The notes beneath the pieces are model-generated. The model was not told where the DNA came from. It saw nothing but the letters and a program-made list of their open reading frames with translations, and made no database searches. Shown piece after piece: positions 2,127 through 11,535 of a DNA stretch of 38,800 nt (the first letter of the stretch is position 1; every line of letters starts with the position of its first letter). The position numbers were made by a program, and so were the translations under genes. The DNA lies in the NCBI GenBank assembly GCA_046760505.1, contig JBHIEG010000018.1, forward strand, positions 1 through 38,800, in the 5' to 3' direction. The stretch comes from Candidatus Hydrothermarchaeota archaeon (GTDB lineage: Archaea; CAYFZR01).

Positions 2127-2498
2127 CTAACCTGTCAGATTCTTTTTCTCATATTTTGTGGGACATTTCACCAATATTTGACTCGCGGTCACATGAGTTT
2201 TGGAATCCAATATACCCGTAACGACAACCCTCTTACCTTCTCCTATGTCCACGGGGAGATCTCCCTTATAAGTTACGTTCAGGGAGGATTTTCCATCGGA
2301 GAGGGTGAATTTTAATGTCTTTGGAATCCAAGTTAATGTTCCCTCCAGAATGTCTCCAACTACTCTCACCTCATGGTTGAGGTATTTATCTGAGTTAGCA
2401 CTGACCTGAGAGACGGTTAAATAAAAGGTTCCCGTTGTTTTTGTTGTACATCCTGCAATAAACATTACTAAGATCGCACTAAGTAAGATTCTCTTCAT
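2127..2498 (-). CDS. ccmE: Cytochrome c maturation heme chaperone CcmE, CxxxY variant
   Basis: N-terminal hydrophobic anchor, VRVVG, F.LSDG, V.Y.G.LP…EG..VVV.G, C-terminal LVKCPTKY; ccm context. Confidence 0.9.
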   Translation of the reverse strand: MKRILLSAILVMFIAGCTTKTTGTFYLTVSQVSANSDKYLNHEVRVVGDILEGTLTWIPKTLKFTLSDGKSSLNVTYKGDLPVDIGEGKRVVVTGILDSKTHVTASQILVKCPTKYEKKNLTG

Positions 2499-2499
2499 T

Positions 2500-2628
2500 T
2501 TATCGCCTCTCGATTGATTTCATTTTTCTTTCAAGAGCCTTCATCCGCATATCCATCCAGAGAAGGTATAAAAAAAGTCCTGTCCAGATAAATACGCTTG
2601 CCATCAAAATGCCCACGAGAGTATCCAT
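2500..2628 (-). CDS. ccmD: Small single-TM CcmD-like protein, 42 aa (MDTLVGILMASVFIWTGLFLYLLWMDMRMKALERKMKSIERR); not in the ORF track
   Basis: Translated by hand. ATG directly follows the ccmC TGA, with GGAGGT SD 6 nt upstream; TM helix with IW..LF.Y and basic tail; lies between ccmC and ccmE. Confidence 0.75.
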   Translation of the reverse strand: MDTLVGILMASVFIWTGLFLYLLWMDMRMKALERKMKSIERR

Positions 2629-3135
2629 TCAAGTACCTCCAAATGTTGGTAGTTCTTGAGGGTGTAGAGCACTGAACTTCACAGACACATAGCTGATGAT
2701 TATGCATATAAATCCTAGGATGGCGAATACTGCAGTTATCCTTGCTCTCTTCTCCTCGTTAACTATTGCGGACCTGAGGGTAAGATACGCCGCATATACG
2801 AGCCAAAGAATTAGAGTGGTCGTTTGTCTAGGGTCCCAGTTCCAGAAAGCACCCCATCTCATCTTTGCCCATATTGCACCCGTAACTAGGGCAAGAGCAC
2901 CGAACAATAAGCCTAACTTTGCTGAAGAATGAGCAATATCATCTAACTTCACGTTTCTTTTCTTTAAATAGGAAGTACTCCCTACAAACGTTATTGTAAA
3001 GGCAAGATAAGATATCCATGCCATTGGTACGTGGAAATAAATCATTCTGTCTCTGTCATCCGCATTTGGAGAGTATACAAGTGCCAGATATAAGGCGAGG
3101 GATATAGCCAGCCATATTGCAACAATCTCCTTCAT
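2629..3135 (-). CDS. ccmC: Heme exporter/chaperone CcmC (short, 168 aa)
   Basis: YFHVPMAW His, WWD motif TGAIWAKMRWGAFWNWDPRQT, C-terminal LHP His. Confidence 0.9.
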   Translation of the reverse strand: MKEIVAIWLAISLALYLALVYSPNADDRDRMIYFHVPMAWISYLAFTITFVGSTSYLKKRNVKLDDIAHSSAKLGLLFGALALVTGAIWAKMRWGAFWNWDPRQTTTLILWLVYAAYLTLRSAIVNEEKRARITAVFAILGFICIIISYVSVKFSALHPQELPTFGGT

Positions 3136-3260
3136 GGAAGCACCTGTTTTTTGTGGTTTTTACGGAATTTATGAATGTTGATATACCTCTTTAAACTTTT
3201 TGCGTTTACTTTTATCGAAACCTTATTTTTTCTTTTATCAATGATCTTTCTGTAATTTTT

Positions 3261-3644
3261 CTATATTTTTCGAGGGATCCATATGCATGAACTTCCGTAT
3301 TTCAAACATTCTCGCGGTTTGGAATCTTTTATTAAACACTCACCCCTTAGATCTCCGTAATCCTTCAAAAACGGACATGTACTCCTCAGTTTGTTTGGAT
3401 TATTGGTGTTTCTATCTAGACGAATTATGTACTTCTCAACTTTATTCAAGTTCTCTAGAAATCTTTTGCAATCAATGTATCTGGATAGATTTTTCTGCTT
3501 ATCTTTCCATTCAACCTCAATGCATATATTTTCCAGGATCTCTCTCCTGTCCTCCTTTAACCATCTCTTCAGATCCTCTACATTTATTAGGTTATGTTCA
3601 CGCCAGTGTGCCCTACAACATGCTCCACAGTTTTTACAGATCAT
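3261..3644 (-). CDS. YkgJ-family cysteine-cluster (Zn/Fe-S chelating) protein
   Basis: CKNCGACC … CPFL … CLI…KPREC..Y pattern; start overlaps ccmB stop (ATGA). Confidence 0.75.
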   Translation of the reverse strand: MICKNCGACCRAHWREHNLINVEDLKRWLKEDRREILENICIEVEWKDKQKNLSRYIDCKRFLENLNKVEKYIIRLDRNTNNPNKLRSTCPFLKDYGDLRGECLIKDSKPRECLKYGSSCIWIPRKI

Positions 3645-4321
3645 TCTTCCACAACGTAATCGAAGACATATAGGGAGGTTAAAAACATCAATAAGATGTA
3701 GGAGAGGAGTATGATAAGTTCAATCTTTGTGTGCTCAATTCCGAAACCCATTATAGTTTTTTTGGAAGCGGAAACAGAAGGAATAACCACTGGTAACAAC
3801 AAGGGAAAAAGTACAACGGGAAGTAAAACTTCTCTCGCGCGAGCATCCATTACCAGACTCGCTATTATGGATCCAACAATCACAAATCCTATGATTCCGA
3901 TAAAAATATCGATGAATACCAAAAGTATATTGAAATCTATGTTCAGGTTGAACAAAACGATTGATAGCGGAAAAACGACTACCATCAAAACCAGCATGAT
4001 GAATAGATTGTAAAGCATCTTTCCAAGGAGAATTGACCTGTTTTTTATGGGGCTCAAGAGTAGCCCCTCAAGGGTTCCGGTTTCCTTCTCCCTTACAAAG
4101 GTTCTGTTTAAACTCAACGTGCCGGAAAAGAGAAGGATAACCCATATCAAAACGGGTACGAGATCTTTAATAAGGTTCACATATGTTCCCAGCGTATAAC
4201 TGAGAAGGGTGAGCACTATCAGGGCAAATATGAATACAGAACTGATTGTATGCTTTGCTCTCAGTTCCACTCTTACGTCCTTTGAAAAAATAGCCAGCCA
4301 ATCACTCATCTCATTCACCAA
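3641..4321 (-). CDS. ccmB: Heme exporter ABC permease CcmB
   Basis: KDVRVELR, F.REKETGTLEGLLLSP, ARAREVLLPVVLFPLLLP; about 6 TM segments. Confidence 0.9.
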   Translation of the reverse strand: MVNEMSDWLAIFSKDVRVELRAKHTISSVFIFALIVLTLLSYTLGTYVNLIKDLVPVLIWVILLFSGTLSLNRTFVREKETGTLEGLLLSPIKNRSILLGKMLYNLFIMLVLMVVVFPLSIVLFNLNIDFNILLVFIDIFIGIIGFVIVGSIIASLVMDARAREVLLPVVLFPLLLPVVIPSVSASKKTIMGFGIEHTKIELIILLSYILLMFLTSLYVFDYVVEE

Positions 4322-5027
4322 TTAAATTAAGAAAGACGTCTTCCAGAGAGTCCTTTATTTCTTCAATGTACTCCAGAAATATAACCTGACCTCTATTCAT
4401 TATTGCGACTCTATTACAAAGCGACTCTGCCTCACTTAGATGATGTGTTGTTAAAAAAACAGTTGTACCATCTTTATTTAGATGTTTAATTAGGGATCTA
4501 ATCTTTTTTGCACTAATTGGATCCAATCCCGAGGTTGGCTCATCCAAAAGAAGTATCTTGGGTTTATGAAGCAAGGCCTTTCCTATTGAAACTCTTTTTT
4601 TCATACCGCTAGAGAGAGTATACACCTTTTCATTTGCAAATTCTACCATGTCAACGATTTCTAAAACATCCCAAATTTTTTCTTCGTCATTTATTCCATA
4701 TAGTTTCATGTAAAAATCGAGATTTTCATAACTGGAGAGTTCTTCGTATAGAAATGCATTATGAGAAACGACGCCGATCATTGATTTAACCTCCTCTGGA
4801 TGGTCTATTACACTCTTTCTACCTACGTAAACATCTCCTTCAGTGGGTTTAAGCAGTGTAGAAATTATTTTTATAAGCGTAGTCTTTCCAGCCCCATTGG
4901 GTCCCAACAAACCAAAAAATTCTCCCTCTTTTACCGAAAAGGTCACTTTATTTAACGCTGTTACCTCGCCATACCTCTTAACGATGTTCCTGACATCTAT
5001 GTCAGCGGCAGGCATATCTTTAGACAT
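4311..5027 (-). CDS. ccmA: ABC ATPase, CcmA by context
   Basis: Walker A GPNGAGKT, signature LSSGM, Walker B LLLDEP, H-loop TTH; overlaps ccmB. Confidence 0.8.
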   Translation of the reverse strand: MSKDMPAADIDVRNIVKRYGEVTALNKVTFSVKEGEFFGLLGPNGAGKTTLIKIISTLLKPTEGDVYVGRKSVIDHPEEVKSMIGVVSHNAFLYEELSSYENLDFYMKLYGINDEEKIWDVLEIVDMVEFANEKVYTLSSGMKKRVSIGKALLHKPKILLLDEPTSGLDPISAKKIRSLIKHLNKDGTTVFLTTHHLSEAESLCNRVAIMNRGQVIFLEYIEEIKDSLEDVFLNLIGE

Positions 5028-5421: not shown

Positions 5422-5583
5422 GTTACCACGATCTTAGGCGGTAATAATTATTTTGCCTTTTTTTAGTAAATTTAGTTTTCGTAAATGAAATAAACTTATA
5501 AAAGGGAGATATGAAAAAATAACAGTTTCTCAACAGATTTGCTTACACAAACTATATATAATCCACGGTATAAAATAAAAAAC

Positions 5584-5943
5584 ATGTCAGTGGAAAAATT
5601 AGCAGCCTCCATGAAGGGTTATCTATCCGAGGAAACTGCTACCGACTTCTTATTACTCAACAAAATCTTCAATGAACCTAGATTCAGGGCACTGAAGAAC
5701 AAGGCTATTGACAGGGTTTCCACCGTCTTGCTATCCGGAGCGAAGAATCACGAGTTGTTCTTCGACATAGTCGAGTGGGGCGTCCAAAATGGAGTTGCCT
5801 CAAAGCCAACATTTTCTAGGAGAAAAAACTTTTTGAAGGACCTTGGAATCATTGAAGAAGAGAAGGTAAAGACAGACTTCGGAAGACCGAGGATCAGACT
5901 CATCTTAAATGAAGACAAGTTTAGAGAGCATTTCAATCCTTAA
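5584..5943 (+). CDS. Stand-alone winged-HTH protein resembling the C-terminal domain of haloarchaeal TbsP/DUF5821 regulators
   Basis: LLSGAKNHELFFDIVEWGVQNGVASKPTFSRRKNFLKDLGIIEEEKVKTDFGRPRIRL matches the recalled TbsP C-terminal pattern (AKNE.L.YDIS.WGE..G.ASKATFSR.K..LE..G.I.TEKV..DVGRPRLRL). ATG 5584 lies about 25 nt after TATATATAA (5553-5561), so probably leaderless. Confidence 0.75.
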   Translation: MSVEKLAASMKGYLSEETATDFLLLNKIFNEPRFRALKNKAIDRVSTVLLSGAKNHELFFDIVEWGVQNGVASKPTFSRRKNFLKDLGIIEEEKVKTDFGRPRIRLILNEDKFREHFNP

Positions 5944-5993: not shown

Positions 5994-6737
5994 ATGATAA
6001 AACTTACTGAGGAAGAATCAAAATTAGTTGAAGAATTCGCCAACTGTTATGATGTAGTTAAGAACATGCCTAACTTTCTCTATGCCAAATATCAGCTTGG
6101 AAATCTCAAGGAAGAAACTGAAAAACTCGGAAAGGATATTGAATATCATCTTTCCAAGGGAAAAGATCCTAGAGAGATAGAAAAACTAATTTCAGGTACT
6201 ATAGAAGAGGTCGAAACGAGGAGGAAGGTTTTCGGCTTATATGAAGTCCTTCCTTACTTCAGAAGGAAGGAGATTGATTTTCTAACCAGACTTCACAAAA
6301 AAGCCTTGGATGTATCGATCTTAGTTGTATTGAATAGAGAGGGACTGCTAAAATTAAACAAGGAAAAAGAAGAATCAATTAAAAACAGAATATGGCTAGG
6401 CTTGGAGTTAAAGATGTTTGCCATGCTTGGAGGCGTCCAAATACCCGAGGAATCCTCATTACCCAATGAAATCATCGGAAAAATATCAGAAGAATGCGTA
6501 AAAACCCTATATTCGAAAATCAAGGAGGAAAGAGAAAAATATCTGAAGTACATTCTGAATGTACTAGATTTCAGGCATAAAGTAGCGTTATACGATTTGG
6601 ACCCAGATCTCTGGCGTTTTTTTGTTGTAATAGAGGCGGTTAGATTACTTGATGTTTCTGGAGAGTTCGTACACGACTTGATAGAATTATCGATATTACT
6701 CCAAAAACTGGAAAAAATCGAAGAAGAAATTAAATAA
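5994..6737 (+). CDS. Hypothetical all-helical protein, paralog 1
   Basis: 247-aa ORF; ungapped ~70% identity (174/247 by hand count) to 10762..11535. Confidence 0.85.
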   Translation: MIKLTEEESKLVEEFANCYDVVKNMPNFLYAKYQLGNLKEETEKLGKDIEYHLSKGKDPREIEKLISGTIEEVETRRKVFGLYEVLPYFRRKEIDFLTRLHKKALDVSILVVLNREGLLKLNKEKEESIKNRIWLGLELKMFAMLGGVQIPEESSLPNEIIGKISEECVKTLYSKIKEEREKYLKYILNVLDFRHKVALYDLDPDLWRFFVVIEAVRLLDVSGEFVHDLIELSILLQKLEKIEEEIK

Positions 6738-6769
6738 AATTTAGTTTTAGAGTTAAAAAAACATCTAAT

Positions 6770-6788
6770 TCGTTTTTTATTTTTTTCT
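6770..6788 (+). terminator. Oligo-T tract, probable archaeal terminator after paralog 1
   Basis: cgtttttttattttttct about 35 nt after the stop codon. Confidence 0.4.
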
Positions 6789-6868
6789 ACACTTTATTTC
6801 ATTTTAGTGAAATATATCTCAGATAAGTTTCATCTTTTTGTAACAAAGTGAATGGAGGGGGTTGGGAA

Positions 6869-7000
6869 ATGAAAACTAGAGTATTGAGTTTCTTTGCGGA
6901 AAGGCCAAGACTTGTCACATTCTTGGTATCCACTGTCGTGCTATTAAGCCTAAGCACGGTAGGACTTGCTGATCCTGCTGGTGGCGGTTGGGGACCATAG
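6869..7000 (+). CDS. Small secreted peptide precursor, 43 aa: MKTRVLSFFAERPRLVTFLVSTVVLLSLSTVGLA|DPAGGGWGP (DUF7503-like); not in the ORF track
   Basis: Translated by hand. SD GGAGGGGG at 6854-6861; basic n-region, hydrophobic h-region, G-L-A cleavage site, Gly-rich tail ending in GP. Confidence 0.8.
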   Translation: MKTRVLSFFAERPRLVTFLVSTVVLLSLSTVGLADPAGGGWGP

Positions 7001-7013
7001 ATCTATTGCCGCT

Positions 7014-7211
7014 CTACTCTATTTTTATTTTTGAAATTTCGCTCGCCCAGTAGAGTTTATTTCTGTATAAAACAGGCGCCGAATGCTTTACTTTATTCAT
7101 AATGTTTCTCAAGTCCTCTGGTGTTATTTCAAATTTCGCCTCGTTGAAGGCAAGGTAGGTGTTCTTGCTTTCTTCAAGATAGAGGTAGAAGCAGCCACCG
7201 ATACCTAACAT
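7014..7211 (-). CDS. C-terminal segment of the CHAT/caspase-like protein, in frame after an internal TGA
   Basis: Reads …AAG TGA CTA GGT GGC ATG… in the same frame as 7221..9056; PVLYRNKLYW resembles the recalled C-terminus of haloarchaeal homologs. Confidence 0.65.
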   Translation of the reverse strand: MLGIGGCFYLYLEESKNTYLAFNEAKFEITPEDLRNIMNKVKHSAPVLYRNKLYWASEISKIKIE

Positions 7212-7220
7212 GCCACCTAG

Positions 7221-9056
7221 TCACTTAATTTTAAGAATTAATTTATCTTGATCAATTTTCTCTATACTATATACAACCGGTATATTTGCTCTGACCTTCT
7301 GCGTCAAGTAATACTCAGGATTTCCAAGCACCAGATAGTCCCTTCCATAAATGGAGGTTAATCGTGCCAGTTCCATTGCTGTTCCTATGGGAAAACCATT
7401 GCTTAATAGCCTTGAGAAATTATAGCCTATTTTTAGAGCCTCTTCATTGCAAACTTTAAATAGCGTAACTATTCCTGCGACGGATCCCTTTTTGATTAAA
7501 TCTTCTCCCTCTTCATAGCTGTTGCAGGCATTTAGGAAGAAAGTTGGAGTGTTGTTTTCTTTAATTTCACTTGCCTTTAAGGATCCATCGCTACAGACGA
7601 AACCATCCTCGCAGTGACCTATGTAGTGCAATAGATCAAAACCTCTGGCAAATATATCTGATAACTCATCCCTGGATAAAAATTCATAGATCTTTGTTTT
7701 AAGGGGAATATCCCTTCTTTTCCTGTATATCTCTCTAACCATCTCTATCTCATCTATCATCTTCTCGTCGTTCAGTACTAAGGCGATATCGATGTGATCT
7801 TTATCTTTACCATAATATTTTAACTGATTGTAGAATGCTTTTTCAGTTGATTTTGCACAGTCTATGGATACTACATCAGAGATCCACATGTGATTGTGGG
7901 AGTCCTTTAAAAAAGGTCTTCCTACGGTTTTTTTCTCTGCCATGGCGAGTGCATCGCCTCTGAAGAAATCATTTAATGATAGTTTGATGACTTCTCTCTC
8001 TGATATTGGCTCGAATCTTGGCAGATATATCAATGAGAGATTGTTCAGCAAGAAAGGAATCGATTTCAAATTCTCCAAGTAAGGCTTTACATAGGAAGAG
8101 AGATGCCATTTCGGCATATACTTTTTAATTTTCTCGTCTGGAACATCTAAGTATATAGGAAGTTGCTCTCCAATGCTTTTATTATATATTTCATTTATAT
8201 CGAAATCTAAGCCCTCTAATGCCTCCAACTCTTTTAAATTAAATTTATATAATCCCGCGTTTCTCACCAGACAATCCAGGAAGAATATCTTTTGAAGTAT
8301 CCAGTTTACTTCGTTTTCGAATTCTGGGAATTTGGATAAATAATATTCAAAGCCATCTGAAACTATTTTTGGCTCTCCAAATCTTATATCTGCGAGGAGA
8401 TAATATGCCAGAGGCGCAACCGTATAAAGATATTCTAATTTCTCGGGAACAAAGATCTCAATGCCCGAGGAAAGTTTTTTTAAATTTTCTGGAACTTCGA
8501 AATGATCGGAGAACTCTATCAAGGGAGGATGTCCTCTTAGAGTTGGATAGCTTCTTTCGCAAGTGCTTGTTTTTATAGAAGATGAAAGAAGGGATATTCC
8601 ACTGGCAATGTCCTCAAGATCCTTTGTAACCTTTATGGTGAATTCAGGTCTCTTATGATAGGATCTCACTCCAAATATTATTTCCCTTTCTTCATCGAAC
8701 TCTAAGGAAATATTTGCATCCTTATCACATGTTATTCTTATCTCCGAATTTACAAATGCATATATCTTTACATGTGAATCGATTTCGATTATGTATCTGT
8801 TTCTTGGAATGATGAAAGAAGAGTTAGTTTCTATTTGTGTTACAACCTCGTAGGTATCATAACTTCTTATATGCGTCAGGAAAGTATCATACCTTATCTC
8901 CTTGCATATTCCGGAAAATGTAACGTCTACAGGATATCTGAATTTAAAATCTTTTCCGGTAAATTTCCAATCTTTGCAATAAAGTCTAACAAGTTTCCTT
9001 TCTGTTTTGTCATGGATCATCAATTCTCCATTTCGGTAATTTATGGAAAATCCCAT
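7221..9056 (-). CDS. CHAT/caspase-fold (clan CD) cysteine protease-like protein with large N-terminal domain
   Basis: LLHYIGHC (~7611-7634) and FFLNACNS (Cys ~7524-7526) form a His/Cys dyad; KTSTCERSYPTLRGHPP, FFLDCLVR and Y.VLG motifs as in a recalled haloarchaeal ~700-aa family. Confidence 0.75.
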   Translation of the reverse strand: MGFSINYRNGELMIHDKTERKLVRLYCKDWKFTGKDFKFRYPVDVTFSGICKEIRYDTFLTHIRSYDTYEVVTQIETNSSFIIPRNRYIIEIDSHVKIYAFVNSEIRITCDKDANISLEFDEEREIIFGVRSYHKRPEFTIKVTKDLEDIASGISLLSSSIKTSTCERSYPTLRGHPPLIEFSDHFEVPENLKKLSSGIEIFVPEKLEYLYTVAPLAYYLLADIRFGEPKIVSDGFEYYLSKFPEFENEVNWILQKIFFLDCLVRNAGLYKFNLKELEALEGLDFDINEIYNKSIGEQLPIYLDVPDEKIKKYMPKWHLSSYVKPYLENLKSIPFLLNNLSLIYLPRFEPISEREVIKLSLNDFFRGDALAMAEKKTVGRPFLKDSHNHMWISDVVSIDCAKSTEKAFYNQLKYYGKDKDHIDIALVLNDEKMIDEIEMVREIYRKRRDIPLKTKIYEFLSRDELSDIFARGFDLLHYIGHCEDGFVCSDGSLKASEIKENNTPTFFLNACNSYEEGEDLIKKGSVAGIVTLFKVCNEEALKIGYNFSRLLSNGFPIGTAMELARLTSIYGRDYLVLGNPEYYLTQKVRANIPVVYSIEKIDQDKLILKIK

Positions 9057-10761: not shown

Positions 10762-11535
10762 ATGTATGCCTTGGGAGAGGTAGATTACAAACTGATAGAG
10801 GAGTTTGCAAATTGTTATGATGTAGTCAGGAATATGCCTCACTTTCTTTACTCGAAAAATCAGCTTAATGAACTTAAAGAAACCACTGAACAGATTGGTA
10901 GAGATCTCAGGCATCACCTCTCTAGAGTTAAAGATCCTTTGGAAGTTGAAGAGATGATCTCTACTGCGATAAATAATATCGAAAATCGGAGAAAATCTTT
11001 TGGATTAAATGAAGTTATCCCTTATTTTAGAAGAAAAGAAATAAGCTTCTTAACTCGCCTCCATAAAAAAGCCCTTGATGCATCAATCCTTTTAGTATTA
11101 AAAAATGAAGGAATGTTAAAAATGACAAGGGAAAAAGAAGAAAACATAAAAAGCAGGATATGGCTTGGGATAGAGTTGAAAATGTATGCAATGCTTGGTG
11201 GAATTGAAATACCAGATGAATCTACCTTTTCCTATGAGATTCTTGAAAAAATATCTAAGGAATGTGTGAATATTTTGTATTCAAGAATCAAAGATGAGAG
11301 AGAAAAGTATCTGAGACATATACTAAATATCTTAGATTTCAAGCATAAAGTAGCACTCTATAATTTAGACCCAGATCTATGGCGTTTCTTTACCATAATA
11401 GAGGCGGTTAGATTACTGGATGTTTCTGGAGAATTCGTTCATGACTTGATTGAACTGTCTATACTACTTGAGAAATTGGAAAAAATAGAAAAGGAGGTCA
11501 GTTATCCCGGATGGGGCGGATGCGGTGGACCTTAG
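10762..11535 (+). CDS. Hypothetical all-helical protein, paralog 2, with extra C-terminal tail YPGWGGCGGP
   Basis: Colinear with 5994..6737 over 247 aa plus a 10-aa extension; GTGA SD-like motif upstream. Confidence 0.85.
   Translation: MYALGEVDYKLIEEFANCYDVVRNMPHFLYSKNQLNELKETTEQIGRDLRHHLSRVKDPLEVEEMISTAINNIENRRKSFGLNEVIPYFRRKEISFLTRLHKKALDASILLVLKNEGMLKMTREKEENIKSRIWLGIELKMYAMLGGIEIPDESTFSYEILEKISKECVNILYSRIKDEREKYLRHILNILDFKHKVALYNLDPDLWRFFTIIEAVRLLDVSGEFVHDLIELSILLEKLEKIEKEVSYPGWGGCGGP

Follow-up and report, generated by a model that had tools for sequence, protein, structure and literature searches.

Prokaryotic microproteins that span the membrane once form a class rather than a homologous family, are described in PMC12648545 and PMC10903887, and are among the closest known counterparts of the element analysed here, a 43-codon open reading frame (ORF) at 6869-7000 on the plus strand of a 38,800-nt stretch of DNA (the window, by which we mean the whole stretch analysed). 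The window comes from the 2.17-Mb genome (38% GC) of a Candidatus Hydrothermarchaeota archaeon (assembly GCA_046760505.1, contig JBHIEG010000018.1, positions 1 to 38,800). A second point of comparison is DUF7503, which comprises small haloarchaeal proteins of unknown function. A third is given by secreted peptide signals: in known cassettes, the gene next to the precursor encodes a receptor, an exporter or an enzyme that modifies the peptide; in the RRNPP precursors of Bacillota (Phr, PapR, NprX), which are small, a signal peptide makes up most of the chain and the active part follows at the C-terminal end; and ComX precursors lack a hydrophobic signal and need an adjacent ComQ. According to the part of PMC5331326 that concerns ComX, its precursors have 53-58 residues, the mature peptide has 6-10 residues, and a Trp stands third or fourth from the end. 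The PapR heptapeptide is mentioned in PMC6568020.

The ORF at 6869-7000 resembles the single-span microproteins in that it has fewer than 50 residues, one predicted transmembrane (TM) helix, a positive-inside charge distribution, its own Shine-Dalgarno (SD) sequence, and no enzymatic domain, and it differs from them in that the end of its helix looks like a signal-peptide c-region and leaves cleavage possible. Very probably it is a real protein-coding gene, and, judging from its sequence, the product is membrane-targeted. An initial annotation of this DNA had read it as an unannotated precursor that releases the nonapeptide DPAGGGWGP in the manner of a peptide pheromone. We favour, over such a released peptide and with a probability of roughly 0.45, a single-span membrane microprotein that stays uncleaved. 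The gene, with its own putative promoter and ribosome-binding site, would express a 43-residue product that is too short for co-translational targeting and would be inserted into the cytoplasmic membrane post-translationally, because the chain would be complete before its hydrophobic segment leaves the ribosome. Following the positive-inside rule, the basic 14-residue N-terminus would stay in the cytoplasm, residues 15-34 would cross the membrane as one helix, and the nine-residue Gly/Trp/Pro tail would face outside. The end state would be an uncleaved, tail-anchored-like protein whose role may be accessory; such proteins usually modulate a membrane protein larger than themselves.

Coding evidence and conservation

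As read from the window, the ORF starts with ATG at 6869-6871, ends with TAG at 6998-7000, and encodes the 43-aa product MKTRVLSFFAERPRLVTFLVSTVVLLSLSTVGLADPAGGGWGP. The strong SD that had been noticed upstream is present as the SD-like GGAGGGGG at 6854-6861 on the plus strand, 7 nt 5' of the ATG. Such signals are used in this genome, as the four-base core is found before 41.7% of 1365 long ORFs compared with 12.3% of random sites, the corresponding values for GGAGG being 8.2% and 1.2%. The codon-usage log-odds of the frame amount to +11.2 bits, which lies within the range of genes (43-codon windows of long genes score 13.2 +/- 5.7 bits, and shifted frames -21 +/- 10.7). The exact 43-aa product is already contained in two collections of predicted proteins; therefore, at least one gene caller has predicted the ORF, and its description as unannotated applies at most to the annotation available when the initial annotation was made.

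Further evidence comes from the only other member of the phylum. In the GTDB-232 genome set, the phylum consists of two genomes, that of the window (G000) and that of a congener (G001), and the order ccmB, ccmA, 112-aa ORF, helix-turn-helix (HTH) gene, 247-aa gene, small ORF is the same in both, with 76-89% protein identity. In the G001 orthologue, a GTG start is found at the same position, with an in-frame TAG two codons upstream, and the SD is kept as GAGGGGG. The start is thereby fixed, and a longer, 50-aa reading from a GTG at 6848 is excluded. The G001 contig ends at codon 23, so that the comparison covers 22 codons and none of the nonapeptide. Of the 68 comparable nucleotides, 11 differ, with K2R and R4K as the sole amino-acid changes, and the resulting identity of 20/22 residues is on par with that of the syntenic neighbours. 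All six differences in codons 5-22 are synonymous, an outcome matched by only 19 of 200,000 random six-substitution sets, and this pattern shows apparent purifying selection on codons 5-22.

An antisense ORF at 6799..6957 has third codon positions in common with the small ORF, and because these positions coincide, it inherits much of the substitution pattern. We rejected it as a gene and read it as a shadow of the plus-strand gene, since its score is lower (+9.0), it has no SD, and G001 carries a stop in it outside the overlap.

The region upstream is organised in a way that is compatible with an independent transcript. The T-tract that the initial annotation had placed between the ORF and the upstream gene consists of T6 at 6773-6778 and T7 at 6780-6786 (plus strand), 3' of the end of the 247-aa gene at 6737, and these tracts are likely an archaeal termination signal that divides two transcription units. 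They lie in a spacer (6738-6789) that is broken by long indels relative to G001, whereas from about 6790 onward the sequence is nearly unchanged through the TATA-like AAATATAT, the SD, and the ORF. The block at 6790..6850 (plus strand) may accordingly be regarded as a putative promoter, in which the A/T-rich AAATATAT (6810-6817) stands some 56 nt 5' of the start codon, and the transcript is predicted to begin near 6840. On the other side, the small transcript may terminate at two T5 tracts at 7022..7032 (plus strand), which stand 22-32 nt past the stop and fall within the final codons of the convergent gene. A scan for bacterial-type promoters and terminators gave nothing relevant.

The stretch is present in four hydrothermal-vent DNA runs (X1-X4), all from one study. 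The window may itself derive from these runs, and they do not count as independent evidence. No difference is listed in the contigs of these runs for the ORF including its tail, and variants occur in the promoter-like block in X2-X4 (6804, 6818, 6832, and 6834). In contigs of X1, X2, and X4 at a depth of 6-10, position 6741 is joined to 6832 with five other letters between them, so that the T-tracts and the promoter-like block are missing; this joint may represent a deletion variant or a paralogous locus, as reads were placed at 80% likeness.

The search for small-ORF homologues that the initial annotation had proposed as a check yielded the orthologue in G001 and none elsewhere. A word-indexed search of 5.8 billion clustered proteins and a phmmer search of 1.84 billion representatives each recovered the query alone. 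A back-translated pattern of residues 5-16 found only the G001 contig in 185,579 species genomes and nothing in the metagenome contigs of the Joint Genome Institute (JGI), and a pattern of the tail plus stop also had no match in the JGI contigs. Among 41 genomes, the seven matches other than those in G000 and G001 were at chance level (E 0.16-0.52). As far as can be seen from these searches, the gene appears to be confined to a single genus, in an archaeal phylum that has been sampled very sparsely. Because this phylum holds two genomes, orphan genes are expected, and the restriction carries little weight either way.

These results bear on a reading in which the ORF has no protein function, having either arisen by chance or survived as the decaying 5' end of a secreted-protein gene truncated by the arrival of the multi-copy CHAT-like gene, with the conservation due only to the brief time since divergence or to an RNA or promoter element. 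The orphan status of the query among the 5.8 billion and 1.84 billion proteins agrees with this, as does the small extent of the comparison, which covers 22 codons and a relative whose neighbouring gene is 81% identical; moreover, the region of about 6980-7290 is unstable in assemblies, where the G001 contigs end, the Logan contigs break at 6979-6988, and joints link 7001/7002 to 7291. However, neither chance nor decay would readily give the synonymous-only pattern and the gene-like codon score, and the SD and the start are kept in G001 with a stop just upstream, as is the promoter block within an indel-rich spacer. No larger protein of the genome has a similar N-terminus, the one weak match in the same genome (on C2) being an internal TM segment of a large protein, which we rejected as a donor. 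An RNA element also finds little support, as the predicted fold is ordinary (no better than shuffled sequences, z = -0.58), and the only Rfam match, RAGATH-19 at 29 bits against a cut-off of 85.6, lies inside the neighbouring gene and is not convincing. None of the RNA datasets is listed as carrying the stretch. Overall, we consider it improbable that the ORF is without protein function.

Membrane anchor or released peptide

The precursor layout described in the initial annotation stands in its parts, namely a basic segment, a hydrophobic helix, and a plausible G-x-A site, and it is the step from this layout to a pheromone that is not supported. Residues 1-14, MKTRVLSFFAERPR (6869..6910, plus strand), form a basic n-region with a net charge of +3 that would be cytoplasmic; the AERPRL motif noted there occupies residues 10-15. 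Residues 15-34, LVTFLVSTVVLLSLSTVGLA (6911..6970, plus strand), are predicted to be either a TM helix or the h- and c-region of a signal peptide. The hydrophobic core, given earlier as about 20 residues, corresponds to the uncharged stretch from L15 to A34, which is 20 residues long, and the Kyte-Doolittle 19-mer maximum is 2.19. The G-L-A site is G32-L33-A34, with D35 next and a candidate signal-peptidase site after A34, and nine residues do remain after it. These residues 35-43, DPAGGGWGP (6971..6997, plus strand), form a tail that would be extracytoplasmic, has its sole Trp third from the C-terminus, and is invariant in the contigs of X1-X4. An AlphaFold2 model (predicted local distance difference test (pLDDT) score 78) places helices at residues 4-11 and 13-34 and coil at 35-43. 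The charge is +4/-1 before the long helix (K2, R4, R12, and R14) and is limited after it to D35 and the C-terminus.

The tail had also been described as GC-rich in an AT-rich spacer, and GC is indeed 0.51 over 6900-6999 compared with 0.19-0.21 over 6700-6849, because the tail uses Gly, Pro, Ala, and Trp codons. In addition, a 14-nt direct repeat, TGGAGGGGGTTGGG at 6853-6866 and TGGTGGCGGTTGGG at 6979-6992 (12/14 identical), joins the SD region to the tail codons. This repeat is probably due to chance, because the first copy is not kept in G001.

The Sec/signal peptidase I pattern is present in the product, which has a basic n-region, an h-region, and, at -3 and -1, the small uncharged G32 and A34. 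A cleavable Sec signal peptide and an uncleaved anchor with N-in/C-out topology are equally compatible with the sequence. Nor are the two separated by length statistics, for which the comparison set consisted of 64 larger proteins of the genome with an N-terminal hydrophobic stretch, a crude set that mixes signal peptides and anchors. In favour of the membrane microprotein, the 14-residue n-region is atypically long for this genome, where the median is 4 and at least 14 residues are found in 7 of the 64 proteins, and the nearest named family, DUF7503, consists of small proteins of 43-45 aa. To our knowledge, archaea have no SecA. We favour the uncleaved form for this reason, together with the need for post-translational insertion and the fact that small single-span proteins are common in the genome. 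Among its small intergenic ORFs, 37 of 6025 ORF/start combinations (32 distinct ORFs) have both an SD and a TM-like segment, and these include, by eye, Sec61beta-, TatA-, and pilin-like proteins.

Several points weigh against the uncleaved microprotein. Its conservation was assessed on 22 comparable codons and a single close relative, and the substitution pattern alone cannot separate the plus-strand frame from the antisense frame, each of which has two amino-acid changes in 22 codons. The AlphaFold2 model was built on a single sequence, and the partner membrane protein that the product would modulate is hypothetical. In addition, the geometry fits a signal peptide well, with a 14-residue core from L15 to L28, followed by a c-region of six residues (STVGLA) in which G occupies -3 and A occupies -1, and with D as the +1 residue; the 20-residue uncharged stretch equals the genome median (n=64); and the genome encodes archaeal signal peptidase I, as TIGR02228 has four matches, three of them above the cut-off, on C2 and C6.

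The same three features, that is the basic n-region with its core and c-region, the typical length of the uncharged stretch, and the three signal peptidase I matches above the cut-off, support the alternative of a Sec-type pre-peptide, in which signal peptidase I would cut after A34 and release DPAGGGWGP outside, possibly in a trimmed or modified form. Two further observations would agree with a released peptide: the same strand encodes, 0.9 kb upstream, a TbsP-like HTH regulator that is syntenic in G001, and the only Trp stands third from the end, a placement shared with the ComX pheromones described in part of PMC5331326. On the other hand, an n-region of 14 residues and a total of 34 are long for the genome, and the eight other paralogues of the 247-aa neighbour have no such ORF. 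The SecA-dependent post-translational export that so short a chain would need is not known in archaea. There is no TPR/RRNPP-like receptor (TPR, tetratricopeptide repeat), peptide exporter, or prenyltransferase adjacent to the ORF, and the tail was absent from all other searched sequences, the sole orthologue stopping at codon 23. We therefore regard release of the nonapeptide as possible but doubtful.

Still more is required for a pheromone, in which DPAGGGWGP, perhaps modified on its Trp, would serve as a diffusible cue that is read via the TbsP-like regulator and the 247-aa protein, and this we consider very improbable. The initial annotation had argued that a gene which is almost all signal peptide has the typical layout of a peptide pheromone. 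This step is not supported, as the layout is equally that of a single-span N-in/C-out microprotein, with no receptor, prenyltransferase, or exporter adjacent; nothing beyond the layout speaks for a released signalling peptide. The likeness to the RRNPP precursors is that the product is small and would be mostly signal peptide, with a putative active part at the C-terminus. In contrast to RRNPP systems, the product is archaeal and thus from an organism without SecA, there are no paralogous cassettes, and the neighbours are an HTH_TbsP_C gene, a 247-aa protein, and a CHAT-fold protein, with no TPR-type receptor beside the ORF. The likeness to ComX lies in the Trp (W41 of 43, third from the end) and in a putative mature part of nine residues, and it is a weak feature taken alone. 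The query differs from ComX in its hydrophobic leader and in its length, as 43 aa fall short of the 53-58 aa given for ComX in that part of PMC5331326. No ComQ-like prenyltransferase is adjacent, the five PF00348 polyprenyl-synthase genes of the genome being on C30, C23, C26, C116, and C121 and none on C18. A shallow literature search turned up no report of a ribosomal peptide signal in Archaea.

Likeness to DUF7503

The resemblance to haloarchaeal DUF7503-type peptides, which the initial annotation had noted, can be upheld as a likeness and not as membership. In Pfam, DUF7503 (PF24335) is the only family at E <= 10, with E 0.09 and 12.8 bits, far under the gathering cut-off of 27 bits, and the alignment runs from residues 4-30 of the query to positions 3-29 of the 42-position profile. 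In a language-model search, three DUF7503 clusters are the top named ones at 0.87, 0.87, and 0.85 (191-192 of 256 features shared), where a score below 0.9 is a lead only, and unnamed clusters of 43-47 aa score 0.89. DUF7503 is thus the nearest named family by both approaches, and both values are below threshold. The sizes are similar as well, as the query of 43 aa compares with a 42-position profile and with Atlas DUF7503 clusters of 43-45 aa. The likeness may stem from composition, because the matched part is the hydrophobic segment. We therefore treat DUF7503 as an apparent look-alike, for which two weak and partly independent signals agree with the initial annotation.

The distribution of the family does not extend to this lineage in our searches. 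The DUF7503 profile has no match at E <= 10 in the whole G000 genome, while the same threshold gives matches in 11 of 14 control genomes, and above the cut-off there was none in 101 and none in 401 sampled archaeal genomes, with matches in the Haloferax volcanii control only. No members were found on three Haloferax volcanii plasmids, and DUF7503 was not mentioned in the literature searched.

Neighbouring genes, assembly variation, and meaning

The gene that converges on the small ORF lies at 7014..9056 on the minus strand and encodes a protein of about 680 aa. The 13-nt gap that had been reported is correct, as measured from the stop of the ORF to the stop codon of the convergent ORF at 7014-7016. 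Calling the convergent product a protease is fair by fold, as it rests on a CHAT/caspase-fold match, and finds no counterpart in sequence families, since there is no Pfam or PDB sequence match. When an intact paralogue was modelled (pLDDT 72.5), some 200 residues of it, in a C-terminal domain, matched SAVED-CHAT (E 2e-7), separase, gingipain, and Craspase TPR-CHAT, and H479, H483, C490, and C513 are invariant in the family. All 21 database matches are labelled hypothetical, and they include metagenome-assembled genomes labelled Methanocellales and Hydrothermarchaeaceae, and haloarchaea. Each genome of the genus has three matches to this family, which are the window copy, G000:C2:3080-4888, and G000:C3:67515-68042 in the one, and copies on C51, C87, and C68 in G001. 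The copy on G000:C3 is partial and interrupted by a stop. The orthologue of the window gene on G001:C51 is at a contig end and covers residues 1-588, the remainder being absent from that assembly.

In the window copy itself, an in-frame TGA at 7221-7223 divides the protein into parts of 611 and 65 aa. Its paralogues (673-700 aa) are uninterrupted and have Gly at this position, and the contigs of X1-X4 have C at 7223, which gives GGA (Gly). The TGA is therefore specific to the window's assembly or a minor variant, because all these contigs read GGA. Recoding of the TGA was ruled out, as TGA ends 513 of 1365 long ORFs.

The convergent arrangement is relevant to a type-I-toxin-like reading, in which the product would be a hydrophobic peptide that damages the membrane when made and whose translation is limited either by pairing of the RNA or by transcription that converges from the CHAT-like gene. 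The CHAT fold is often associated with defence, and the neighbour has this fold. The size and the single hydrophobic helix would fit a toxin, the convergent gene, which ends 13 nt away, has no oligo-T tract on its own strand ahead of the small ORF, and antisense read-through may thus occur, and 17 nt around the start codon (6867-6883) are 82% complementary to 7015-7031, just past the stop. However, this complementarity is A/T-rich, the mRNA has no excess structure (z = -0.58), a strong, exposed SD and an own promoter are untypical of such toxins, and the two full-length paralogues of the CHAT-like gene in G001 lack an ORF of this kind. We give this toxin reading scarcely any credence.

Upstream of the ORF on the plus strand are a single-copy gene for a TbsP-like HTH regulator (HTH_TbsP_C, 5539..5943) and the gene for the 247-aa protein (5994..6737), both syntenic in G001. 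The 247-aa protein matches no family even at E <= 10 and belongs to a helical family of nine copies in G000 with 43-73% identity, namely those at 5994-6737 and 10762-11535 of the window plus L028 and L030-L035, whose genomic contexts differ. No signal-like small ORF follows any of the other eight copies, although one of them precedes an unrelated 52-aa ORF with two hydrophobic segments, and no convergent small ORF lies downstream of the two full-length CHAT-like paralogues of G001. A pairing of the small ORF with either the 247-aa or the CHAT-like family was thus rejected, as these paralogues lack such an ORF.

Within the window, positions 6979-7291 are unstable in assemblies, and two G001 contigs (C9 and C51) end inside this region, leaving a gap of about 350 nt between them. 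Logan contigs of X2-X4 break at 6979-6988, inside the tail codons, and contigs of depth 5-10 in X2-X4 link 7001/7002 to 7291. These low-depth joints imply a second haplotype that diverges at or just past the end of the ORF. The instability suggests either this second haplotype or paralogue exchange at the 3' end of the CHAT-like gene, beginning at the end of the small ORF. A blastn search of 6700-7400 against the genome revealed no second-haplotype contig.

The contig of the window also carries archaeal S10, EF1A, EF2, archaeosine tRNA-guanine transglycosylase, the TbsP-type HTH regulator, and a ccmABC(D)E-like cluster. This cytochrome c maturation cluster of the system I type occupies 2127-5027 of the window on the minus strand and consists of CcmA (4311-5027), CcmB (3641-4321), a CcmC-like ORF that covers profile positions 66-207 only (2629-3135), a 42-aa hydrophobic ORF without a Pfam match in the position of CcmD (2500-2628), and CcmE (2127-2498).

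Of value beyond the small ORF are a CHAT/caspase-fold family that has no annotation and occurs in several copies per genome, and the observation that the contigs of the reads do not show the apparent stop that interrupts the copy in the window. As it stands, the product encoded at 6869-7000 is one more lineage-specific small membrane-targeted protein, and the main use of the finding is a well-supported small-gene call in a two-genome phylum where most genes lack families. If the pheromone reading were true, Archaea would have their first demonstrated ribosomal peptide pheromone, in a phylum of two genomes. Were release of the tail shown, the finding would matter much more, and the sub-threshold likeness to DUF7503 would point to a function for that haloarchaeal family, which is uncharacterised.

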